A DNA stretch of 64,000 nt from Anaerolineae bacterium. GTDB taxonomy: Bacteria > Chloroflexota > Anaerolineae > B4-G1 > SLSP01. Below, in pieces: positions 15,541-26,144 of this stretch. The notes under the pieces were generated by a model. The model made no database searches. It was given only the letters and a program-made list of their open reading frames with translations, and was not told the origin of the DNA. Position 1 is the stretch's first letter; the number at the start of each line of letters is the position of its first letter. The stretch is taken from assembly GCA_025454475.1 (NCBI GenBank), contig JALOOJ010000014.1:179-64178 (forward strand), in the 5' to 3' direction. Position numbers and translations under genes: made by a program.

Positions 15541-17196
15541 TTGGATGCAGATCCTTTGAAAGGGTGCACGACGCAACACAAGGGGGACGCCATGGGAGCG
15601 CTGGGATCCGAATGCAGAGCACGCGACGTGCTGGTTGGCTTGTTGGCGGGCCTGCTGGTGTTTCTGGGGGTGCTTTCGTTCCTGGTTGGTGAGCGGGCGC
15701 ACGAGATCTTCCCCTCCGCACACAATTCCGCCCTTGTCTCCCTGCGCGAGGACCCGGTCGCGCTGGCGGCTGCCGATCGCGCCCGTGGCTTGTTGGTTGG
15801 TCCGCTCTATGTTCTAGCGGCGCCCAATGTGACGTGTACTGTCGATATCACGACGACGGATAGCGCCCCCGTGGGCAATCTGACGCTGGACACAGCCGCG
15901 AGTATCGCCAACTACACTGATCAGTCGCTGCTGGTAGGGACGGGCCCGCACGTCCCTGGAGCATCAGTGGAAACGCGGTCCGATTTCTATAGGCTCGATA
16001 ATGCTACGCCCGGCTACAAGTACACAGTGCAGGCCAAGCCGGACCGGACCATCAACTACAACCTGGGGATGATCGTCTACAATCGCGACAGGGTCGCGAT
16101 CATCACTGACACCAATACCTTTGACAACAACTTCGCAAGTGTGACCGTCACGGCTGACAACTTCGGCCCCTACTACTTCGAGATCTTCCAGATCAGCGAC
16201 CAGTGTTCGGGGCATACGTACAGCCTGATCCTGGGCTCAACGGCTCCGACACCTACCCCTTCGCCCACAGGGACTTCCCAACCTGCGGCAACAGCGACCC
16301 CTGTAGCGCCAAGTTGGATGACGGGTTTCGACCAGTACGAGCCCAACTACGACTTTGGTGTTGCCACGACTATCGCACCCGGCCTCAGCTATGAGATGAA
16401 CTTTGTCCCCTGGGGTGGGGCGGATGTCGACAACGACTTCCTCAAGGTTCGGGTCAAGCCTGGCCTGCAGCTGACGTGTGAGACCTCCGACCTCGACCCG
16501 GCGGTGGACCCGCGAATCGCCTTCTATACTGGTCCGGGCGAGCAGTTCTTCGTCATGGCTAATGACGATATCTCGCTCGGGGACTTTAACAGTCGGCTTT
16601 CGACTTACATTAGCTATGAAGGGTTCCTGTACATTCTGGTCGGGCAGGGGACCCGTATGGCCAAGCGCGATACGGTGAACAGTTCGTATACGATCTCCTG
16701 CCAGCTCACTGTGCCAGGCCAACCTACCACGCCGGGACAGCCCACTCCGATTAGCAAAGCACCCATTCCTGCGCCTGTTGCCACAGCTACGCCGCGGACG
16801 TCGCCTATCGACACGCCCACACCGCCCCCGGCGGCTCAGGATGTTCCGTTGACCTTCCGTCTCGTCACCCGGCCTGAAGCGCCGACGGAAACGCCGGCAC
16901 CCAACGAGTTCCGCACCTTCCGAGTCCTGGTCTACTTCGATGCGGACATGGATGGGGAGATGGGGGCTGGCGAAGGGGTGACCGGTTTCTTTGTTCTGGC
17001 CTTCTCTCCCGATGGTCAAACCGGGTTGGCTCAGGGGTACACCGACGAACTGGGTCAGCTCTCCTTTACTGTCCCGACGGTGAGCACCGTGCGCATCCTG
17101 GTGCCTCTGTTGGGCTATGATCGTCTGATCGAGTCCTCAAGACCCGAGGTGCGGGTGCGTATTGCGCCGCCCAACCTGCCGGAGATGATCCCGTGA
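15541..17196 (+). CDS. hypothetical membrane-anchored protein with two PPC-like beta domains separated by Pro/Thr-rich linkers
   Basis: N-terminal TM helix (LLAGLLVFLGVLSFLV); PT linkers (APTPTPSPTGTSQPAATATP and PGQPTTPGQPTP...TPTPPP). Start may be the internal Met at 15592. Confidence 0.5.
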   Translation: MDADPLKGCTTQHKGDAMGALGSECRARDVLVGLLAGLLVFLGVLSFLVGERAHEIFPSAHNSALVSLREDPVALAAADRARGLLVGPLYVLAAPNVTCTVDITTTDSAPVGNLTLDTAASIANYTDQSLLVGTGPHVPGASVETRSDFYRLDNATPGYKYTVQAKPDRTINYNLGMIVYNRDRVAIITDTNTFDNNFASVTVTADNFGPYYFEIFQISDQCSGHTYSLILGSTAPTPTPSPTGTSQPAATATPVAPSWMTGFDQYEPNYDFGVATTIAPGLSYEMNFVPWGGADVDNDFLKVRVKPGLQLTCETSDLDPAVDPRIAFYTGPGEQFFVMANDDISLGDFNSRLSTYISYEGFLYILVGQGTRMAKRDTVNSSYTISCQLTVPGQPTTPGQPTPISKAPIPAPVATATPRTSPIDTPTPPPAAQDVPLTFRLVTRPEAPTETPAPNEFRTFRVLVYFDADMDGEMGAGEGVTGFFVLAFSPDGQTGLAQGYTDELGQLSFTVPTVSTVRILVPLLGYDRLIESSRPEVRVRIAPPNLPEMIP

Positions 17197-17202
17197 TGCC
17201 AT

Positions 17203-18894
17203 TTGGCGAACAGTGATGAGGCAATATCCATGACCCAGAAAACCGTGAAGGACTACTACGCCGTCCTTGGGTTATCGTCACGGGCGTCGCTGGATGAGAT
17301 TCGGCTGGCCTATCGCAAGCAAGCGCGGGCCTACCATCCTGACCTGAGCACAGACCCGGATGCTGCAGAGCGGTTCCGGGAAGTGAACGAGGCGTATGAG
17401 GTCCTGGCCAATGCGGAGAAGCGTCATGCCTACGACTACTTCACTGCGGGGATGCCACCCCTGGAGACGCCCCAGATGGACGATGTGCCCCACCTTGATT
17501 CATCACCGCCGCTATCAGCCCCCTTTGCGCCATCTTTGGCTGGGCCCGGGCCCGTGATGCCGCCGCCGTTATCGGCAGCCAGGGCAGAGGCTCCGCGGCG
17601 GGTCTATCCGCCCACTTGGGCGATTCTGCTGATCGTGGTCGGCGCATGTACCATCGTTGGCGTTGGCATCGGAGCGTTCCTCTCGCTTCGGCGCAATCGC
17701 CCCACGGGCGGGGCTGGGGCCGTCGATGTGGTGAAGCTGGCCACGTTCCTCTCCCCGCCGTCGATTCCGGAGAATCTCACGGTTCTGCAAGAAGACGATA
17801 TGCCTTTGCGCACGGTCGCGCCCATCCAACTCATGGTAGGCGGTGATGTCTTCCCCGTTGTAGCCGTGGTTCCGGAGCAGGGGCGGTGGCCGATGCCTGC
17901 GGAACAAGAGCAGTTGGGGGTATGGATCCACGGGACGCTGATCAACTATGTGATCGGGATGCCCTACACGGCCGATATGGAGTATTTGCTCTCCGGGCTG
18001 ACGAGCAGCGATCGCCTTACGCTCACGCTGGAGAGTGGGATGGCCCTCGTGTTCGGATCTCCTCAGTTGAAACGCGTCGCGCTCGATGACATGTCACCGC
18101 TGGCTCAGGACACCCCGGAGCTCACGTTGTTGACGCTGGGCGACGGCCGCTCCAACCGTCTGGTCGTCAAGGCTCGATACCTGCCGGAGAACGTGGCTCC
18201 AGTCGTTGAACAGAGCGCCGATGGCCTTGGGGTCAAGATAATGCGTGCCGACGTGGTCCCGGGCGTGGCCCCCGACGATGGGGAATCGGCGTACTTCGTA
18301 GTCGAGTTTGAAGTGATCAATGGAAACGCGTCCGCTGTTAATCCGGCGTTCTTCGATATGGTGCTGGAGGATGGTCGCGGACAGCGATATATGCTGAATG
18401 ACACCGCGACAAGCAAGGGCAACTACGGCAAGCTCAGCCTGCCGGTTCTAGCTGGCGCGAGCGTCTCCGGCAGCGCCGGCTATGTGATACCACGTCAGGT
18501 TGTCGCGCCTCTCGTCTGGATTTTCAGGGCCGATGTGACTTCCAGCGATGTGGTCAGGTTTGTCACGAGCTACGAACCCCCTGCGCCAACGCCGGCGGCG
18601 CCCGAAGTTGAGCTTAGCGAAGCGTTCTTCGACCGGAATCGCGATGTGATTGTTATCTCGGGCACGGTCTACAATGATGGGGGCTCGAACTTGAGTGTTG
18701 CCGCTGAATCCGTTGAACTGACCTCCAGCATGGGCCAAAGCAGGCTGGTTGCCTCGACGCCGTTGTTGCCGTGGCCTATCATTCCCGGTAGCTACCAGGA
18801 CTTCGAGCTTCAGTTCGAGGCGCCGGCGAGCACCGACTCGGTGCTGCTCAACATCCTGGGGTTTACCTTCGAGATCGAGGGCTTGACCCCCTAA
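17203..18894 (+). CDS. J-domain (DnaJ-like) membrane protein with C-terminal extracytoplasmic DUF4352-like domains
   Basis: J domain DYYAVLGL...[12 protein letters not shown] (HPD motif), Pro-rich linker, TM helix ([22 protein letters not shown]), then beta-rich C-terminal domains. Confidence 0.7.
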
Positions 18895-19709
18895 GCTTCC
18901 AGGACGATCAAGGCGCCGAAGCGACCTGTCCGGCCCCCTTCGGAACGGTGCGAGTACCACTCGTCTGTGCGGCACGCCGTGCAGATTCCTGCGTGGTCGA
19001 TCGCGCGGACCCCCAATGCTGTCAGCTGCGCATGGATTGCGCCCGGCAGGTCGAGGGTCCACTGGTCTGCCCGTCTGAAAGCGACCTGCGCTCCGGGAGG
19101 AAGCGTGGCCTGGACCGCGTCAACGACTGCGTCGCCCACCGCATAGTGGTCACTACAGATCGATGGGCCGATTCCTGCCCAGAGGTCGCTCGGATCTGTC
19201 CCGAAGGTTGCGGTCAGGTGCGCCAGGGCGGCGGGCACCACCTGTGCAGCTACGCCGCGCCAGCCGGCGTGTGCCAGGCCGATGACGTGGTGCACGGCGT
19301 CATAGAACAACACCGGAACACAGTCGGCAAAGCGCAGCAGGAGCGCTAAGCCGGGCTGGTTGGTGACGAGGGCGTCGGTCGCCGGGATCACCGAGCCCCC
19401 ATCGCGGCGGTCCGCTGTGGCGACGTGCGCGCCATGGACCTGGTGCGGGCTCACGACTGCGGCTCTCGATAGGCCCAGTGCCCCAAAGAGTCGCCGATGG
19501 TTCTCCTCAACGGCCCCAGGATCGTCGCCGACCGAACTACCAAGGTTCAGGGCGGCGAATGGGGCCCGGCTGACTCCACCCAGGCGCGTGACCATCGCGT
19601 GTTGGAAGCCCTTCAGGGAATGGATACCTCGATCCCCTGAAGGGCGCGGGTCTATGAAGTGGTACCAGGCGATGCCTGTTCCCGGATCCTCGACGCGCTG
19701 AAGGGGCAT
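18891..19709 (-). CDS. pgeF: peptidoglycan editing factor PgeF (YfiH/DUF152, laccase-domain purine nucleoside phosphorylase family)
   Basis: Conserved H and C motifs ([45 protein letters not shown]). Confidence 0.8.
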
Positions 19710-19716
19710 GCCGCCC

Positions 19717-20232
19717 CTACGAGCGGGCGGTTCGGAAACCGTGGGCGAAGAGTGTCTTCAGGACGAGCCCAACCCAGCCGACGGCCCAGAACCCGAGGAG
19801 GATGCCCGCCAGAGCCACTTTTTGCTCGTCGACGATGGGCTTGACGTGTGTTCCATCTGGACCGACCTCGATGTAGGCGATGGGACGTACATGCGCGCCA
19901 GCCCCGCCGCCTGCGCCGCTCGCTGGCTCGTGTACGTCGCATTCACAGGGCTCGTCCTCACAGCAGCCCTCGTCCGCGCAGCATGCCTCGCCCTCGGGTT
20001 CAGTCTCACTGCCGCATTCGCACTCGCCTTCACACTCACACTCTTCCTCACATCCGCACGAACATTCCGGCGGCTCTGAGGTTCCTGCTCCCATTCCGAA
20101 GCCATACGTCACCTCAGCCACGGGGATAAGCGTGCGTCCCTCAATGACCTGCGGTTTTCCGAACACCGCGTCCACGTTGGCCTCGGCAGACATCTTCTCG
20201 AATCGGTTCACCAGTGCTGTGATTGCTTCCAT
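19717..20232 (-). CDS. GerW/YtfJ-family (Spore_YtfJ) protein with an internal Cys/Glu-rich insertion and a C-terminal TM helix
   Basis: Both conserved halves of the YtfJ fold flank a 48-residue insert with 13 Cys (PECSCGCEEECECEGECECGSETEPEGEACCADEGCCEDEPCECDVHEP). Confidence 0.7.
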   Translation of the reverse strand: MEAITALVNRFEKMSAEANVDAVFGKPQVIEGRTLIPVAEVTYGFGMGAGTSEPPECSCGCEEECECEGECECGSETEPEGEACCADEGCCEDEPCECDVHEPASGAGGGAGAHVRPIAYIEVGPDGTHVKPIVDEQKVALAGILLGFWAVGWVGLVLKTLFAHGFRTARS

Positions 20233-20246
20233 TCAACTAGCCTCCT

Positions 20247-20549
20247 CTATCTACGCCACAGGAATCGGATCGCGCCTATCAGGAATACGGCGGCCAAGGC
20301 GATACCTACGGCTGGAGCAGCCATGGTACTGATCGTGGCTGTCGTTTCATTGGGAATCTCCATCCATTGTGCGCCCTCGGGTCCCTCAACCACGATCGAT
20401 ACTGGTCTTGCCTTCACTTGGCGGAATAGCCCACGCCCCGGCACTCCATAGGCCGTTGTATCCACGAGGACTGAGGGCAATAATCTCACCTCGCCCAGGT
20501 CGATCGGCGTTGCTGCCACCAATCGGGTTCGTTTTTCGGGTAGCTTCAT
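20247..20549 (-). CDS. hypothetical small protein with C-terminal TM helix
   Basis: ORF 20247-20642, start placed at the internal Met (MKLPEKRTRL). Co-directional and tightly spaced with the GerW-like gene. Confidence 0.4.
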   Translation of the reverse strand: MKLPEKRTRLVAATPIDLGEVRLLPSVLVDTTAYGVPGRGLFRQVKARPVSIVVEGPEGAQWMEIPNETTATISTMAAPAVGIALAAVFLIGAIRFLWRR

Positions 20550-20574: not shown

Positions 20575-20895
20575 TCATTGCAGGAGCGCGTCCTTGTCAC
20601 AGTAACTCGGCCATCCGTTGGGCAGATCCAGGTCACAGACATCGGAATCCACGGGATAGCGGGTCAGCTCAAGCGCCATATCCAGGCCATCGGCGATGTC
20701 GTCCAGTGTCGTGGCCATCGGCGTGTCGGTCCAGCGTAGATCGGTGATGTGCTCCCGAATCCACCTGGAGGCCATCAGCCGTTGTGACTCAGGGACCTTG
20801 AGCAAGATGACCTCGCCCTGGCCGATAGCGTCCAGCAACGCATCGAGGCTGCTATAGCCCATCATCTTCGCGATCTCACGTGCTCGGTCGATCAT
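20575..20895 (-). CDS. hypothetical acidic protein
   Basis: 106 aa, no recognisable motif; first gene of the minus-strand cluster ending in pgeF. Confidence 0.4.
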   Translation of the reverse strand: MIDRAREIAKMMGYSSLDALLDAIGQGEVILLKVPESQRLMASRWIREHITDLRWTDTPMATTLDDIADGLDMALELTRYPVDSDVCDLDLPNGWPSYCDKDALLQ

Positions 20896-20940: not shown

Positions 20941-22821
20941 TCAGCCGATGAAACCAGCCTGAGGGATCAAGTCAGCGTAGTCCTGGACTGAGCCCTGATC
21001 CAGACAGCACTCGATGATCCGGCGCCCGAGGGGATCCAAGCTATCAGTCAAGAAGAGGCCCAGTTGCTGGTGGAAGAAATCGGTCAGAATACGTGCGCCC
21101 TGGTCGTAGCCGTCATTGCCGACCTCGGGCTGAGTGTTCACTTGCAGGAACCACCGGGCAACAAACCGGCCCTCCAACTGCAGTTGGTGGAGTGCATAGC
21201 CGAGCAAGGGGCTGCGCGCTGGGCGAATCTGGTCAGCCTTGAACTTGGCGCTTCCCCGACGCGCCAGATACTCGCGCATAAGCCACTCAGCCATGAACCC
21301 GACGCGCCATGCGCCGATGTACTGGTTGGGGCAGAGCACATAGCGCGTGTTGAGATTGTCTCGGAATTGCGTCAGCAGCAGATTGGCTTGATCGACGCGC
21401 AGGCCGGTCGCAAAAGGCCAATAGGAGCCCACGCCCTCGCTGCTCATACCCTTGGTGTCGATGATGCTCGGGCTGTCGTGCCCGCGCGGTGCAGCGAGTC
21501 GCCACAGCCACGCCAGTGCCGGCGGTAGCAGGTGAAAGAGGCCGATGATCCCATACGTAGGATGCTCCTCTGTACACGGGGGCGTGCGGACGCCGAAGCT
21601 GCGGATGTCGACCTGCACCGGCTCGTTGACGATATTGGGGAAGATGCTGCGCGGGACAACCACGCGTGGATTTGGGCAAGGCTTTCCTGGCGTGTCTTCA
21701 ATGTGCTCCCAGATCAGGGCACGGCTACCGGGCACTGCATAGAGGTTCATAAAGAGCAGCGGTTCGGACGGCTCCGCCGTCAGGCGTTCCAGGTGGACAT
21801 CGGTCCCGTAGTGATCGATATGGTTGACGCGGAGAAACCACGCATCTTCGGCATCGACGACGGTGAGTTTGCCGGAGCCGGTTTGCAGCGAGGGGTGGCA
21901 GAGCGCCATGTCATCGGCTACGGGGTATAACTCGCAAGATCGTGGGATCTCGAGGTAGCGGCGCTCGCCGGTCAGCATGTTCTCCCCGAGCAGTAGCCGC
22001 CCGTCTTCCTCACGCTGTGCGTGCTCCAGAAGCTCGCTCTTGCCACCTCCGCTCGCAGCTTCGTGCATCATCGTTGTCACGTTATCGTAGGGTGTCACCA
22101 CCATCACGGCCGAACAGTGCGCAGTCACCCATCCCTCTTTTTCGCCCTGGGCCAGCAACATTCCGTATACACCCTTTTTTGCGCTCGGGCCCGGGTAGAG
22201 GTTGTAGGAGAACATCTCGTGCAGGTCCGGCATGCGGTTGTGGACGACCACCTGTCTGCCGTCGAAGTGCGTGTGCCTGAAGGGTGGGGCCACGTAGATG
22301 ATCGACTTAGGGCAAAAGTCCTCGGGGATGTCTTCCTCAGCGATGATGCCTTGCAGGAGGGCGAGACTCATTCCGAAGAACCCCGCGTTTGCGGGCGCGA
22401 TGACCACGGAATCCTGTCCCATGCCGCGCTGCCCAGTCACATAGCCAAACATCATCAGCGGGCGCGCTGCCAGCCAATCGAAGGTGGCTTGGCGCATCGG
22501 CGCGAACTCGCTTCCGTAGCGCTCCAGGTACGTAGGCTTATCGGTAGGACCGTCGTCGGCGACGACCAGGCAGTCGGGATCGCGCCGTCGCATGTAGGGT
22601 TCGGGGTAGTTGACCGAAACGCCATTGCGCACCCGGGCGACAATTGCCTCGACGACGTCGCCCTGCTCAGGTACGTCATACGAGACTTCGAAGTGGCTGC
22701 TGCCCATCCCGCCGCAGGCGAGGTTGACCAGTTCAGTCACAGTGCTGGCAATCGTCAGGCTGGGACAAGCTTTGACGATCCGCGCGGCCTCCGCAGGTAG
22801 ATGATATCGCTCCCAATCCAT
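20941..22821 (-). CDS. large uncharacterised protein, DUF4914-like, with an HprK/PEPCK-like P-loop (ASGGGKSE)
   Basis: About 626 aa from Met MDWERYHL; the long ORF begins at 22950. Family assignment is from memory only. P-loop-like motif seen directly. Confidence 0.55.
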   Translation of the reverse strand: MDWERYHLPAEAARIVKACPSLTIASTVTELVNLACGGMGSSHFEVSYDVPEQGDVVEAIVARVRNGVSVNYPEPYMRRRDPDCLVVADDGPTDKPTYLERYGSEFAPMRQATFDWLAARPLMMFGYVTGQRGMGQDSVVIAPANAGFFGMSLALLQGIIAEEDIPEDFCPKSIIYVAPPFRHTHFDGRQVVVHNRMPDLHEMFSYNLYPGPSAKKGVYGMLLAQGEKEGWVTAHCSAVMVVTPYDNVTTMMHEAASGGGKSELLEHAQREEDGRLLLGENMLTGERRYLEIPRSCELYPVADDMALCHPSLQTGSGKLTVVDAEDAWFLRVNHIDHYGTDVHLERLTAEPSEPLLFMNLYAVPGSRALIWEHIEDTPGKPCPNPRVVVPRSIFPNIVNEPVQVDIRSFGVRTPPCTEEHPTYGIIGLFHLLPPALAWLWRLAAPRGHDSPSIIDTKGMSSEGVGSYWPFATGLRVDQANLLLTQFRDNLNTRYVLCPNQYIGAWRVGFMAEWLMREYLARRGSAKFKADQIRPARSPLLGYALHQLQLEGRFVARWFLQVNTQPEVGNDGYDQGARILTDFFHQQLGLFLTDSLDPLGRRIIECCLDQGSVQDYADLIPQAGFIG

Positions 22822-22907
22822 GGCCTTCTCTCCTCTTCCTTTCCCTTGGGATAGCACAAGCGGCGCCTTTGACTTGCGCCGCCTGTCATCCCTCAACCCC
22901 GAATCTC

Positions 22908-25900
22908 TTAGGTCATCCCCGGCGGCGTTTGCGCTCGAAGCGCTCGCCACAATCGCTCAGGTGTTACCGGCGTTCGCTGGACCATCACGCCAGTGGCGTC
23001 ATAGATCGCATTGATGACCGCAGGGGCGACCCCATTGACGACGATCTCCGCCACTGACTTGACACCCACAGGGTGCGACGGCTCGAAGGTCTCGACGAAG
23101 AGCGTTTGCATCGGTGGCATTTCGTCAGCGCGGAGCACGCGGTAGTCATCGAAGCGCGGGTTCACGGTGCGGCCCTGATCGTCGTAGATAAGCTCCTCGG
23201 TCAGCGCATAGCCCAACGCCTGATGCATCCCGCCCTCCGCCTGGCCGCTTGCCGTCAGGGGGTTGACGATCTGCCCGGAGTCCAGGGCGATCAGCAGGTT
23301 GTCTACCACTGTCTGGCCGGTCTCGGTGTCGACGGTGACCTCGGCAAACTGTGCGCCGAAGGGCGGCGGGCTCACAGGACTCACAAACGATGCGTGCCCC
23401 ATGATTTGGTGCTGGTTCTGCGTGTGGAGCGCGAACAGCGCGATCTCGCGAAGCCCCAAGCTTGCGCCGTCCTTGCGCCAGGCCCGTCCACCCCTCAGCG
23501 TGAAAGCCGAAGGAGCGCCCCCGACCATCTCCGCAGCCACGGCCCGGATCTGGTCCGCTACTGCGTTTGCAGCCCGGGCAACGGCCCCGCCACTGACATA
23601 GGTAGTACTGGACGCGTAGGCGCCCTTGTCGAAGGGCGTCACGTCCGTGTCCGAAGACCGGATGATCAGGTTCGTCAGACTGCAGCCCAGGACCTCTGCA
23701 GCGATCTGGCCCAACACCGTGTCGGATCCCGTGCCCAAGTCGGTGGCGCCGATCATCAAGTTGAACGAGCCATCGTCGTTCATCTTGATATTTGCCGCCC
23801 CCATGTCCAAGTTGGGGATCCCTGAGCCCTGCATCAGGAAGGCAACGCCGATTCCACGGCGCAGGTGCGGCTTGCCCCAGACCACGTGCCAGTCTGGGTG
23901 GCCGAACTTTCGGGACCAGTCGACGGCTGCTGCGCCCTGGATGGCCGCCTCACGCAGCGCGTTGGTTTCGATGATTTCGCCACGGGCCTCGCGTCCCTCA
24001 CTCCACGTCTTGCTCATGATGTTTTCGGTGTGTGGGGCGATGATGTTGCGCAGGCGGAACTCCAATGGATCGAGTCCCAGTTCGTGCGCCGCGCGCGTGA
24101 TAAGCGTCTCGGTAGCGATGACCCCCTGGGTGACGCCATAGCCGCGGAAGGCCCCCGCACGGGGGAGGTTCGTGTAGTAGGTCTCGCCCCGGAAGCGAAC
24201 GTTGGGGGTGTTGTATAGCGGGAGGGTCTTGTGTCCGGTGTTGCCCAGCACCGTCAGCCCGTGCCCGCCGTAGGCGCCCGTGTCGCTGATGGCGTGCATA
24301 TCCTGCGCGACCATGATGCCGTCCGCGTCGACGCCGATGCGATACGTCACTCGCATCGGGTGCCGCGTGGTCGTGTAGATGAACTGCTCCTCGCGCGTGA
24401 GCTCCAGGAAGACTGGGCGCCCGGTGGCGATCGTCAAGTGCGCCGGGATGTCCTCGTAGATCTCCTGTTTATTGCCGAAGGCCGCCCCGATGCGCGGTTT
24501 GATCACGCGGATGCGGCTTTCGGGGAGTCCCAGAACCGGCGCCAGAATCCTGCGTACGTGAAATGGAACCTGCGTCGAGGCCAGGATGACCAGCCGGTCG
24601 TCCTCGTCCCAATACGTCAGGGTCACCCAAGGTTCCAGGGGGACGTGCTTCATCTTCTGCGTGTCGACGGTAGTTTCGAAGACCCGAGCCGCACGGCCAC
24701 ATGCGTCATCGACATTACCGACCTCAAGGTCCACCTTGGCGACGAGGTTCCGGGCGGGGTCGCTCTCCCCGAATCTAGCATAGTCGTCCTGATCGTGGAT
24801 GATCGGCGCGCCCTCTGCCATAGCGGCATCCATCGTTAGCGCCGCCGGTAGCACCTCGTAGTCTACCCGGATCAGACCAATGGCTTCCTCCGCAATCTCG
24901 GGGCTGTCGGCAGCCACTGCCGCCACACGATCGCCCACATAGCGAACCTTCCGGTCGAAACTCACGTAGTCCAGCGGTCCAGGAATGGGGTAAGACTGCC
25001 CGGCTGTTGAGTAGACGACGCGGGGCACGTTCTTGTGGCACAGTACCGCACGCACGCCGGGCAGGTTCTCAGCCTCGCGCGTGTCAATCTCCCTGATTCG
25101 CGCATGGGCGTGGGGGCTGTGGAGGATCTTGGCATAGAGCATCCCGGGACGCTCGAAATCGGCTACGAAGGCTGCGTGTCCCTGCACGAGCTTCGGCGCA
25201 TCCACTTTGGGTAGGGGCTGGCCGACGACATCGAAGCGCTGCCCCTCCGTTGAGACAAAGACTGTCGGATGCGTCTGGATGCGAGTCTGTGTGGCTGAAT
25301 GAGGTGCACCACCGGACTCCAGGGGCTCGGGTTCGACGCTGGGGGCGGGGCCAAACGGGCTGGGAGGGAGCAAGTCGTCGGGCATACGATACAGATCGGC
25401 GGTCGCGTCATCGCCGATGGGGCCGAGGTCCTCGCCGCGCATGATCGCGGCTGCGCGCAGGATTGCGGAAACGGGCTTCGCATACCCGGTCTCGCGCGAT
25501 ACAATGCCACTGATGGCATCGCGAACTTCCGCCTCGGTAGGGGTGCGCGTGCGCTCCAATAGCGCCAGCCCCGCGAGGATCAGGGCAGGTGTGTCGTAGC
25601 CGCTCTGGATCGCCCCGGTGTCGATGAAGGCCTGCTGCAGCGGGTGCCACGCGGGACCACGGTCCCAGCCCAGTAGCTGCGGCCCCCTCAGCCCTTCGAG
25701 CGTCAGGACCTCAGCGCCATCTACCTGGGCGGCGAGCAGGGTCACACTGCTCACCGCGTGCCCGTTCACCAATACCGTGCTATACCCATCGGCGCCGTCC
25801 TCGCTGCCGAACTTCATACTGTGCAGACCAGGCCGCTGGGAAGCGGGACGCCGGAGAAGGCGAAACAAGGTGTCTCGTGGTGATATGTCGAACTGGCGTT

Positions 25901-25931
25901 TTTCTCCGTTTAGGGTAATGGTGATCTGCAT
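22908..25931 (-). CDS. xanthine dehydrogenase/aldehyde oxidase-family molybdopterin-binding subunit with a fused N-terminal cysteine-less [2Fe-2S]-type domain
   Basis: N-terminus aligns to CoxS/XdhA-type 2Fe-2S subunits (TLNGEK...TLLxxLR...TVLVNG...QQAFIDTGAIQSGYDTPALI) but every Cys position is substituted. Followed by a/b hammerhead (HSPHAHARI...GVRAVL) and MoCo-binding domains. Start at MQITITLNG (25931). Confidence 0.85.
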   Translation of the reverse strand: MQITITLNGEKRQFDISPRDTLFRLLRRPASQRPGLHSMKFGSEDGADGYSTVLVNGHAVSSVTLLAAQVDGAEVLTLEGLRGPQLLGWDRGPAWHPLQQAFIDTGAIQSGYDTPALILAGLALLERTRTPTEAEVRDAISGIVSRETGYAKPVSAILRAAAIMRGEDLGPIGDDATADLYRMPDDLLPPSPFGPAPSVEPEPLESGGAPHSATQTRIQTHPTVFVSTEGQRFDVVGQPLPKVDAPKLVQGHAAFVADFERPGMLYAKILHSPHAHARIREIDTREAENLPGVRAVLCHKNVPRVVYSTAGQSYPIPGPLDYVSFDRKVRYVGDRVAAVAADSPEIAEEAIGLIRVDYEVLPAALTMDAAMAEGAPIIHDQDDYARFGESDPARNLVAKVDLEVGNVDDACGRAARVFETTVDTQKMKHVPLEPWVTLTYWDEDDRLVILASTQVPFHVRRILAPVLGLPESRIRVIKPRIGAAFGNKQEIYEDIPAHLTIATGRPVFLELTREEQFIYTTTRHPMRVTYRIGVDADGIMVAQDMHAISDTGAYGGHGLTVLGNTGHKTLPLYNTPNVRFRGETYYTNLPRAGAFRGYGVTQGVIATETLITRAAHELGLDPLEFRLRNIIAPHTENIMSKTWSEGREARGEIIETNALREAAIQGAAAVDWSRKFGHPDWHVVWGKPHLRRGIGVAFLMQGSGIPNLDMGAANIKMNDDGSFNLMIGATDLGTGSDTVLGQIAAEVLGCSLTNLIIRSSDTDVTPFDKGAYASSTTYVSGGAVARAANAVADQIRAVAAEMVGGAPSAFTLRGGRAWRKDGASLGLREIALFALHTQNQHQIMGHASFVSPVSPPPFGAQFAEVTVDTETGQTVVDNLLIALDSGQIVNPLTASGQAEGGMHQALGYALTEELIYDDQGRTVNPRFDDYRVLRADEMPPMQTLFVETFEPSHPVGVKSVAEIVVNGVAPAVINAIYDATGVMVQRTPVTPERLWRALRAQTPPGMT

Positions 25932-26144
25932 AAAGTCCTCGTCCATGCCGCTCGGGAGCGTTGAGACCGGGATGTTTTTCGATTATCCGAGCCATTGTAC
26001 CGGGATTGATGCGTCTGTCAAAGGTCTGAGGCGTAGGTTTCAGGGCTGAGTGTGCTATAATTGGATTGGATCGTGACACTCATTGCCTTCGGGCTCTGGG
26101 CACCCGCTGTCAGAATGCCTCGTCACGACACCTCGGGAGATCCA

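Follow-up and report, generated by a model that had tools for sequence, protein, structure and literature searches.

Loss of gerW (ytfJ) has no significant effect on spore germination or outgrowth in Bacillus subtilis, nor on spore germination in Bacillus megaterium (PMC4366231), and the YtfJ scaffold therefore carries no known function. We analysed a gene for a tail-anchored protein of this family from an Anaerolineae bacterium, located on the minus strand at 19717..20232 of a 64,000-nucleotide stretch of contig JALOOJ010000014.1 (the window), in which 13 cysteines are packed into an acidic loop. Comparison with related sequences indicates that this trait is real, clade-wide and evolutionarily constrained, and we infer its function from composition alone. 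Binding of metal ions is the best-supported functional guess and, judging from the sequences, the most likely one. We found no literature on PF09579/GerW-family proteins outside the Bacillota, or on Cys-rich or membrane-anchored variants of YtfJ.

The 171-residue protein shares with B. subtilis GerW (YtfJ) a Gly-rich central loop and the two conserved halves of the Pfam model. The original prediction of a YtfJ/GerW-family protein with both halves intact is borne out by its match to PF09579 (Spore_YtfJ; 37.3 bits against a gathering cutoff of 25, E=3.4e-9), in which residues 30-137 align with profile positions 4-67 of 81. It differs from GerW in having a C-terminal membrane anchor and an acidic, usually Cys-rich extra loop segment, and in its conserved neighbours, which here are a probable truncated paralogue (p100) and PgeF. 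The hosts differ as well, being known from Anaerolineae/Thermoflexales metagenome-assembled genomes (MAGs). None of 54 genomic loci comes from an endospore-forming member of the Bacillota; all are from Anaerolineae, Thermoflexales or Chloroflexota MAGs, and we know of no endospores in the Anaerolineae/Thermoflexales host lineage. The GerW equivalog model TIGR02874 gives 27.5 bits against a cutoff of 116.3 and aligns with residues 10-51 only, so the names GerW and sporulation or germination protein should not be used for this protein.

Metallothioneins (MTs) are generally defined by C-X-C, C-C and C-X-X-C motifs and by thiolate binding, and those of bacteria are few and come largely from cyanobacteria, pseudomonads and mycobacteria (PMC13578184). 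The Cys-rich segment of the Anaerolineae protein resembles BmtA/SmtA, MymT and the pseudomonad MTs in its Cys density, its CxC and CC motifs, its lack of aromatic residues, its occasional His and its predicted disorder when metal-free. With 13 Cys in 49 residues and no aromatics it lies within the usual composition of MTs (about 15-30% Cys, CxC/CC/CxxC motifs and few aromatics). MTs are also small free proteins of about 3.5-14 kDa, whereas this loop is internal to a folded, transmembrane (TM)-anchored protein, is extremely acidic and almost lacks CxxC. It has no match to an MT family in Pfam or to an entry in the PDB: a Pfam scan of six representative loops at E<=10 matched no MT model and returned only a spurious hit to the acidic-repeat family Trypan_PARP, and a PDB search with the loop alone gave no matching chain. 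The description "metallothionein-like" in the original prediction thus holds for composition and spacing and fails for family or structural similarity. A PDB search with the whole protein found chance matches only (dihydroorotate dehydrogenase, E ~1.5). A search of a 5.8-billion-protein database with the insert alone found no word-sharing candidates, a result from which the occurrence of such segments in other protein contexts is not decidable.

Acidic motifs with CC pairs are also found in nickel- and zinc-handling proteins, of which the C-terminal tail of SlyD is one example and the EEGCC motifs of Helicobacter pylori Hpn another. CC motifs, among them the Hpn peptide Ac-EEGCCHGHHE, are stronger ligands of Zn(II) and Ni(II) than CH/HC motifs, and peptides of this kind take up both ions tightly by way of the CC pair (PMC10221980). 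A similar [DE]-x-C-C arrangement with acidic and His neighbours was counted 95 times, in 52 members of the family studied here. Hpn and SlyD differ from it in having tails dominated by His, which is sparse in the YtfJ loop, and in being soluble proteins with no homology to it; one of them is tied to hydrogenase/urease maturation, and no such genes lie near the YtfJ locus. The thioredoxin-metallothionein chimera TrxA of Runella (PMC13578184) is like our protein in that an MT module is claimed to be joined to another bacterial domain, although there a canonical SmtA-type MT is fused terminally rather than placed in an internal loop. Since its parts are 96% identical to TrxA of the enterobacterium Citrobacter and 98% identical to SmtA of Synechococcus (PMC13578184), this chimera suggests contamination by a Trx-tag/SmtA expression vector and is a weak precedent.

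The Loop and Its Scaffold

All 13 Cys of the protein are confined to residues 57-98. They lie within a segment running from P55 to P103 (19924..20070, minus strand; PECSCGC...CDVHEP), which contains CxCxC, (CE)n, two ExxCC units and CxC..H and which is 27% Cys, with zero aromatics and one His. The original prediction was right about a Cys/Glu-rich segment with CxC and CC spacings and about the 13 Cys, which it counted in 48 residues; the segment is 49 residues long. Asp and Glu together contribute 21 residues to the 65-residue loop delimited by the family anchors (residues 51-115). Among 581 stop-free stretches in the six frames of the window, this locus has the highest number of Cys in any 48 residues, 13 compared with 8 at the next-best site, and Cys makes up 0.76% of the residues in the long open reading frames (ORFs) of the window. 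The Cys density of the segment is far beyond chance.

The gene begins with an ATG at 20232, preceded by a Shine-Dalgarno-like GGAGG at 20241..20245 that is 8 nucleotides upstream of the ATG and falls within the 14 nucleotides separating this gene from the stop codon of the one before it. The N-terminal half of the protein (residues 1-51, 20080..20232) ends with YGFGMGAG, and in the family alignment V20, F24, G25, I36, P37, A39, G48 and G50 are invariant in this half. Within the Cys-rich segment, the ExxCC units are encoded by an imperfect 18-bp (hexapeptide) tandem repeat at 19951..19995, for which Tandem Repeats Finder (TRF) reports 2.5 copies and 77% matches. The segment was originally thought to replace the Gly-rich loop of the family, but the Gly-run ASGAGGGAGA (residues 104-113, 19894..19923) follows directly after it and is kept in the query and in 120 of 120 homologues, with G106, G108, G109, G110 and G112 invariant or nearly so. 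The C-terminal half (residues 114-135, 19828..19893; HVRPIAYIEVGPDGTHVKPIVD) has P117, A119, I121 and G127 as invariant residues and leads into a hydrophobic Gly-/Trp-rich helix (residues 136-163, 19744..19827), the presumed membrane anchor. A short basic tail, HGFRTARS (residues 164-171), and the stop codon complete the gene (19717..19743). On the opposite strand an ORF of 150 residues at 19880..20332 encodes a His/Ser-rich product (SLPHSHSPSHSHSSSHPHEH); we rejected it as a by-product of the hexanucleotide repeats, and only the minus-strand frame is conserved across homologues.

An AlphaFold2 (AF2) model built on 74 family sequences (mean predicted local distance difference test score, pLDDT, 74.8) contains helices at residues 2-17 and 20-24, strands at 28-30, 33-51, 105-124 and 127-132, and a final helix at 136-163. 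The N-terminal half thus supplies two short helices and the first long strand, and the C-terminal half the returning long strand and a short one. Strands 33-51 and 105-124 form a very long beta-hairpin with the Cys-rich segment at its tip, where residues 62-92 have a pLDDT below 50. In this model the loop is solvent-exposed, disordered and polyanionic, and its position at the hairpin tip would permit free expansion. In these structural terms, what was described as an insert is best regarded as an acidic variable loop, located at the hairpin tip, that has been expanded and enriched in Cys.

The C-terminal TM helix that had been predicted is well supported, with a pLDDT of about 97 for residues 136-163 and invariant W149 and W153. 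Like the bacterial tail-anchored proteins described by Craney et al. 2011 (PMC3087755), members of the family have no N-terminal signal sequence, a single C-terminal hydrophobic helix and a tail of 4-12 residues, an architecture characteristic of tail-anchored membrane proteins. The N-terminus is acidic and hydrophilic, with a mean net charge of -2.6 over the first 20 residues and a maximal 12-residue hydrophobicity of 1.58 within the first 36. The mean net charge of the post-helix tail is +1.5, that of the flank preceding the TM helix is -0.5, and that of the N-domain is -17 across the family and -24 in this protein. The basic tail hints that the YtfJ protein may not have the classical N-in orientation; predictions for tail-anchored proteins of bacteria include both orientations (PMC3087755).

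Variation and Conservation across the Family

A database search found 240 homologues at E<=1e-3, and loop statistics were collected for the query and the best 120 of these (121 sequences), with the conserved anchors PVAxxxxGxGxGxG and RPIAYI as loop boundaries. All of the best 120 share a common architecture, a precomputed PF09579 match is on record for 119 of them (P0044 is the exception), and their annotation is mostly to Anaerolineae/Chloroflexota MAGs. The loops are 24-72 residues long (median 47) and hold from 0 to 16 Cys, with at least 4 in 76 sequences, at least 8 in 45 and none in 21. The segment is therefore not the singular insertion that the original prediction implied, and an acidic variable loop is present clade-wide. 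Cys accounts for 11.7% of residues inside the loops and 0.09% elsewhere, and the Cys count of a loop rises with its length (r = 0.84) and with its number of His (r = 0.71).

The arrangement of these Cys is also distinctive. The commonest neighbours of a loop Cys are Glu (30%) and Cys (29%), and the loops together contain 195 CC, 181 CxC and 68 CxCxC motifs, 34 CxCxCH motifs in 32 sequences, and 11 CxxC motifs. When the residues of each loop are shuffled as a control, the real loops show an excess of CC (z=+6.9) and CxC (z=+10.1) and a depletion of CxxC, with 10 observed against 74 expected (z=-8.1). CC and CxC spacings are the signature of MT-type ligand sets, unlike the CxxC of zinc-ribbon, thioredoxin and ferredoxin sites. 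An excess of even Cys counts, which was sought as a sign of disulfide pairing, was not seen among the Cys-containing loops (56 even and 44 odd).

For an unbiased census, the Cys-free member P0099 was used as a query against 1.84 billion representative sequences. This census gave 1238 relatives at E<=1e-3, of which the best 150 were inspected. Nearly all of these combine a hydrophobic helix at the C-terminus with an acidic/Gly loop bearing 0-1 Cys, and only a handful (P0121, P0122, P0124, P0128, P0157 and P0236) are Cys-rich. Cys-richness thus appears to be concentrated in the subfamily closest to the query, and the prevalence of acidic loops with few or no Cys among distant relatives indicates that the acidic loop is the ancestral state and Cys-richness is derived. 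Some of the more distant TM-anchored YtfJ proteins (P0195, P0145, P0262, P0075 and P0091) have a loop without Cys and instead show a few clustered Cys in the short stretch that follows the TM helix, the tail clusters being of the types HPCKCSRCVRCAH, NCACCAK, RCCTCEED and SDSCC; in these relatives the anchor seems to have received a thiol cluster at its opposite end.

A tree based on the flanks alone requires about 17 changes in the trait of having at least 4 loop Cys, compared with a mean of 36.7 and a minimum of 29 when the trait is assigned at random. It is therefore heritable, yet it has been gained or lost many times, and three members with near-identical flanks (P0060, P0068 and P0092) carry 9, 4 and 0 Cys, respectively. 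The repeat units also differ by subclade, with (ExxACC)n, (CE)n, (HEPGCECEC)n and (CDxxEEC)n all represented, which together with the many gains and losses suggests repeated selection for a property and not for one sequence. Loops lengthen and shorten in hexapeptide units. The closest homologue of the window protein, L059, comes from another sample and is 85% identical to it; 5 of the 13 Cys codons differ synonymously (TGC/TGT) between the two, and the loops differ by one hexapeptide, an additional CCGDET in L059 that corresponds to a clean 18-nucleotide indel and falls in the 18-bp tandem repeat at 19951..19995. P0128 has three near-perfect tandem copies of a 17-residue unit, ADECCCDEASADADA[AT]E, which add CCC triplets; this very recent duplication illustrates the way in which a loop grows.

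Selection on the thiols was examined in five sequence pairs from different subclades, which were pooled although they are few and not fully independent. Identical columns numbered 49 of 53 for loop Cys, 82 of 110 for other loop positions and 562 of 639 for the folded flanks, and the difference between Cys and other loop columns is significant (Fisher p=0.006). For the window protein and L005, 11 of 13 Cys columns, 9 of 22 other loop columns and 93 of 129 flank columns (72%) are identical. Many of the conserved Cys columns carry synonymous TGC/TGT differences between the members of a pair. The loop Cys thus appear to be as conserved as the folded core while the residues between them drift, an observation that is supportive of purifying selection on the loop thiols rather than conclusive. 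The original prediction had held that it would fail if orthologous inserts proved to be ordinary linkers without conserved Cys, and this describes a minority of the orthologues and is contradicted by the majority.

Gene Neighbourhood

The gene for the YtfJ protein is followed on the minus strand, 7 nucleotides past its stop codon, by a gene for a PgeF/YfiH protein (18891..19709; Cu-oxidase_4, PF02578, 257 bits; TIGR00726, 182 bits), and it is preceded by a gene for the 100-residue tail-anchored protein p100 (20247..20549, minus strand), which has no Pfam family and possesses its own C-terminal TM helix and an RR tail. An hhalign profile-profile comparison aligned p100 with the C-terminal half and TM helix of the YtfJ family with 80% probability (E=1.3e-5). 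From this alignment p100 is probably a truncated, tail-anchored YtfJ paralogue, and a possible role for it could be as a hetero-oligomeric partner of the YtfJ protein. Further upstream on the same strand are a gene for a 106-residue acidic protein, p106 (20575-20895), with no Pfam match and a sub-threshold hint of a SAV_915 domain (13.7 bits against a cutoff of 40), and, at 20941-25946, genes for a DUF4914 protein (669 residues, 1023 bits) and a xanthine-dehydrogenase-type Mo-hydroxylase (Fer2_2 + Ald_Xan_dh_C + MoCoBD, 1012 residues), the latter overlapping the start of the DUF4914 gene by 43 nucleotides. A single strong sigma70-like site was seen; it lies upstream of the Mo-hydroxylase gene at 25994-26021, agrees with the consensus at 11 of 12 positions and is identified by this agreement alone. 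These six genes may form one operon in this genome. A role as purine nucleoside enzymes has also been described for the PgeF family and would fit a purine-catabolic Mo-hydroxylase.

Across approximately 50 loci, PgeF was found in 50, while p100 and a divergently transcribed DnaJ-domain protein were each found in 42. In the window the latter is a 563-residue protein with a weak DUF4352 match, which is encoded on the plus strand at 15541-18894 together with a 551-residue protein without a Pfam family; this region is kept with the module in about 40 loci. The genes for p106, DUF4914 and the Mo-hydroxylase are upstream in only 16-20 of the loci (16 for the Mo-hydroxylase), p106 co-occurring with the other two in about 20. 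No link between Cys richness and neighbourhood was found in these loci, the arrangement p100-YtfJ-PgeF-(DnaJ) being the same around Cys-rich and Cys-free members. In one homologue of 205 residues (P0119) the YtfJ sequence runs into an apparent PgeF-type start, with a tail (...GLVWYAFTGPG...) that resembles the N-terminus of the window PgeF. P0119 could be a frameshift or a fusion, and the read-through gives independent support for tight YtfJ-PgeF linkage.

Proposed Metal Binding and Alternative Explanations

Many clustered thiolates and carboxylates held without a fixed sequence are most simply explained, chemically, by multidentate binding of soft or borderline metal ions. We therefore favour, at a little under even confidence, a reading in which the membrane-tethered loop binds metal through thiolates and carboxylates in a metallothionein-like manner and with a capacity that can be tuned. 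At the tip of the hairpin and ahead of the Gly-run, a disordered polyanionic loop enriched in Cys pairs (CC, CxC and CxCxC(H)) among Glu and Asp would present thiolates that, aided by carboxylates and an occasional His, could chelate ions such as Zn, Cu, Ni, Cd or Fe in small thiolate clusters. As a rule of thumb, known MT clusters use about 3 Cys per divalent ion, by which measure the 13 Cys of the window protein would hold roughly four divalent ions, or more of Cu(I). Capacity could be tuned over evolution through slippage-type gain and loss of hexapeptide (18-nucleotide) units, and the protein would then be a metal buffer or sink, tethered to the membrane, that takes up more or less metal according to its number of units. 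Orthologues lacking Cys would retain only a carboxylate version of the loop, suited to hard cations or to a purely electrostatic role. The co-varying His, the MT-type spacing and the selective retention of Cys most likely reflect a role as metal ligands, so far as sequences can tell. That the loop supplies or buffers metal for the co-transcribed PgeF, which we take to be a zinc enzyme, is pure speculation.

Several observations weigh against metal binding. The extreme acidity of the protein (21 Asp/Glu in residues 51-115 and an N-domain charge of -24) is atypical of classical MTs, and neither the MT families in Pfam nor the chains in the PDB resemble the loop in sequence. The 21 of 121 Cys-free sequences have an unchanged gene neighbourhood, so the core function of the protein does not need thiols, and the genes directly around it revealed neither a metal-responsive regulator (ArsR/SmtB, MerR or CsoR) nor a metal transporter. 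Hexanucleotide repeats of the (TGC GAG) type are prone to slippage, and part of the Cys load could therefore be mutationally driven. The sequence pairs used in the selection test are few and the sequences related. Finally, the basic tail after the TM helix conflicts with a simple N-in tail anchor, and the charge bias argues against a simple N-in/C-out topology.

The leading alternative is a neutral or nearly neutral low-complexity expansion, in which a loop that accepts nearly every hydrophilic sequence accumulates (TGC GAR)-type hexanucleotide and 18-nucleotide units by slippage, the thiols have no dedicated function and the protein performs equally well whether or not they are present. It would account for the wide range of loop lengths and Cys numbers, including the Cys-free members, for the sister sequences with 9, 4 and 0 Cys, for a p100-YtfJ-PgeF context that is the same whatever the Cys count, for the unit indels and fresh tandem repeats (window protein and L059, P0128, and the TRF repeat), and for the predicted disorder of the segment. 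We nevertheless consider it unlikely, as disordered linkers ordinarily contain less Cys than any other residue and Cys is scarce in the long ORFs of the window, yet it makes up more than a quarter of this segment. Furthermore, conservation of the Cys columns matches that of the folded core and exceeds that of the other loop residues (p=0.006), even where TGC/TGT codons have changed synonymously, the avoidance of CxxC and preference for CC and CxC exceed what composition would give, and unrelated repeat units converge on one property across subclades. An artefact of assembly or amplification in a repetitive region, a concern raised with the original prediction on account of the short imperfect tandem repeat, has a negligible probability and is excluded in practice: the repeat is weak, the reading frame is intact between two conserved halves, the loop is found again in L059 with synonymous differences and a single clean indel, and more than 40 species-level MAGs from independent assemblies by unrelated projects contain loops of a comparable kind.

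Two further explanations would give the thiols a function other than metal buffering. Dense thiols beside a membrane could serve in redox or sulfur chemistry, redox sensing being an alternative that the original prediction had also raised. They might buffer or sense redox state close to the membrane by means of reversible disulfides, vicinal ones among them, scavenge oxidants or electrophiles, or carry persulfides or polysulfides in hosts that are mostly anaerobic. The bin names of the source MAGs suggest sediment, spring and bioreactor samples (anoxia is our own reading of these names), and the data do not separate thiol redox from thiolate-metal chemistry. Such a role seems rather improbable, given that obligatory disulfide pairing would predict a preference for even numbers of Cys that is not seen, that the CxxC redox motif is specifically avoided, that co-varying His and flanking carboxylates are better explained as metal ligands, and that no thioredoxin, Dsb-like or sulfurtransferase neighbour was found at the loci. 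Cys pairs at the ends of the loop (CxCxC ... CxCxC(H)) could instead ligate one or more Fe-S clusters, making the protein a membrane-bound electron carrier or Fe-S scaffold that is possibly tied to the upstream [2Fe-2S]/Mo-hydroxylase. Minimal members (P0053, P0068, P0072 and P0105) do keep two CxC(xC) motifs with 4-6 Cys, enough for one cluster, and some of the genomes have a Mo-hydroxylase with a Fer2_2 domain in the putative operon that contains the YtfJ gene. This we regard as very improbable: CC/CxC spacings with depleted CxxC are unlike known Fe-S binding motifs, the number of Cys is highly variable and often odd, the Cys lack hydrophobic shielding in a highly acidic segment predicted to be disordered, and most loci have no Mo-hydroxylase.

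With metal binding as the preferred reading, we tentatively propose, as a possibility that we would not yet call probable, that these proteins represent an undescribed kind of metal-thiolate protein, in which an MT-like module at the hairpin tip of a tail-anchored YtfJ protein arose several times from an acidic loop in an Anaerolineae/Chloroflexota clade, with its capacity tuned by repeat units. The finding is relevant to specialists in metalloproteins and in the Chloroflexota and has as yet no bearing on an open question of long standing. Even if the metal hypothesis fails, the selective retention of Cys pairs within a fast-drifting, disordered acidic loop remains unusual and needs explaining. 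The "sporulation/germination" name of PF09579 is misleading for these organisms, the founding member itself having no germination phenotype (PMC4366231). If metal binding is correct, the loop would give the enigmatic PF09579 (YtfJ/GerW) family its first testable biochemical property, and it would be a natural case of a metal-binding module evolving by short-repeat expansion within a folded scaffold. Anaerolineae are abundant in sediments, digesters and sludge. For these bacteria, a clade-wide, membrane-anchored and tunable thiolate loop would provide a new route to metal handling, as a membrane-tethered metal buffer or sink that possibly serves the co-transcribed PgeF.

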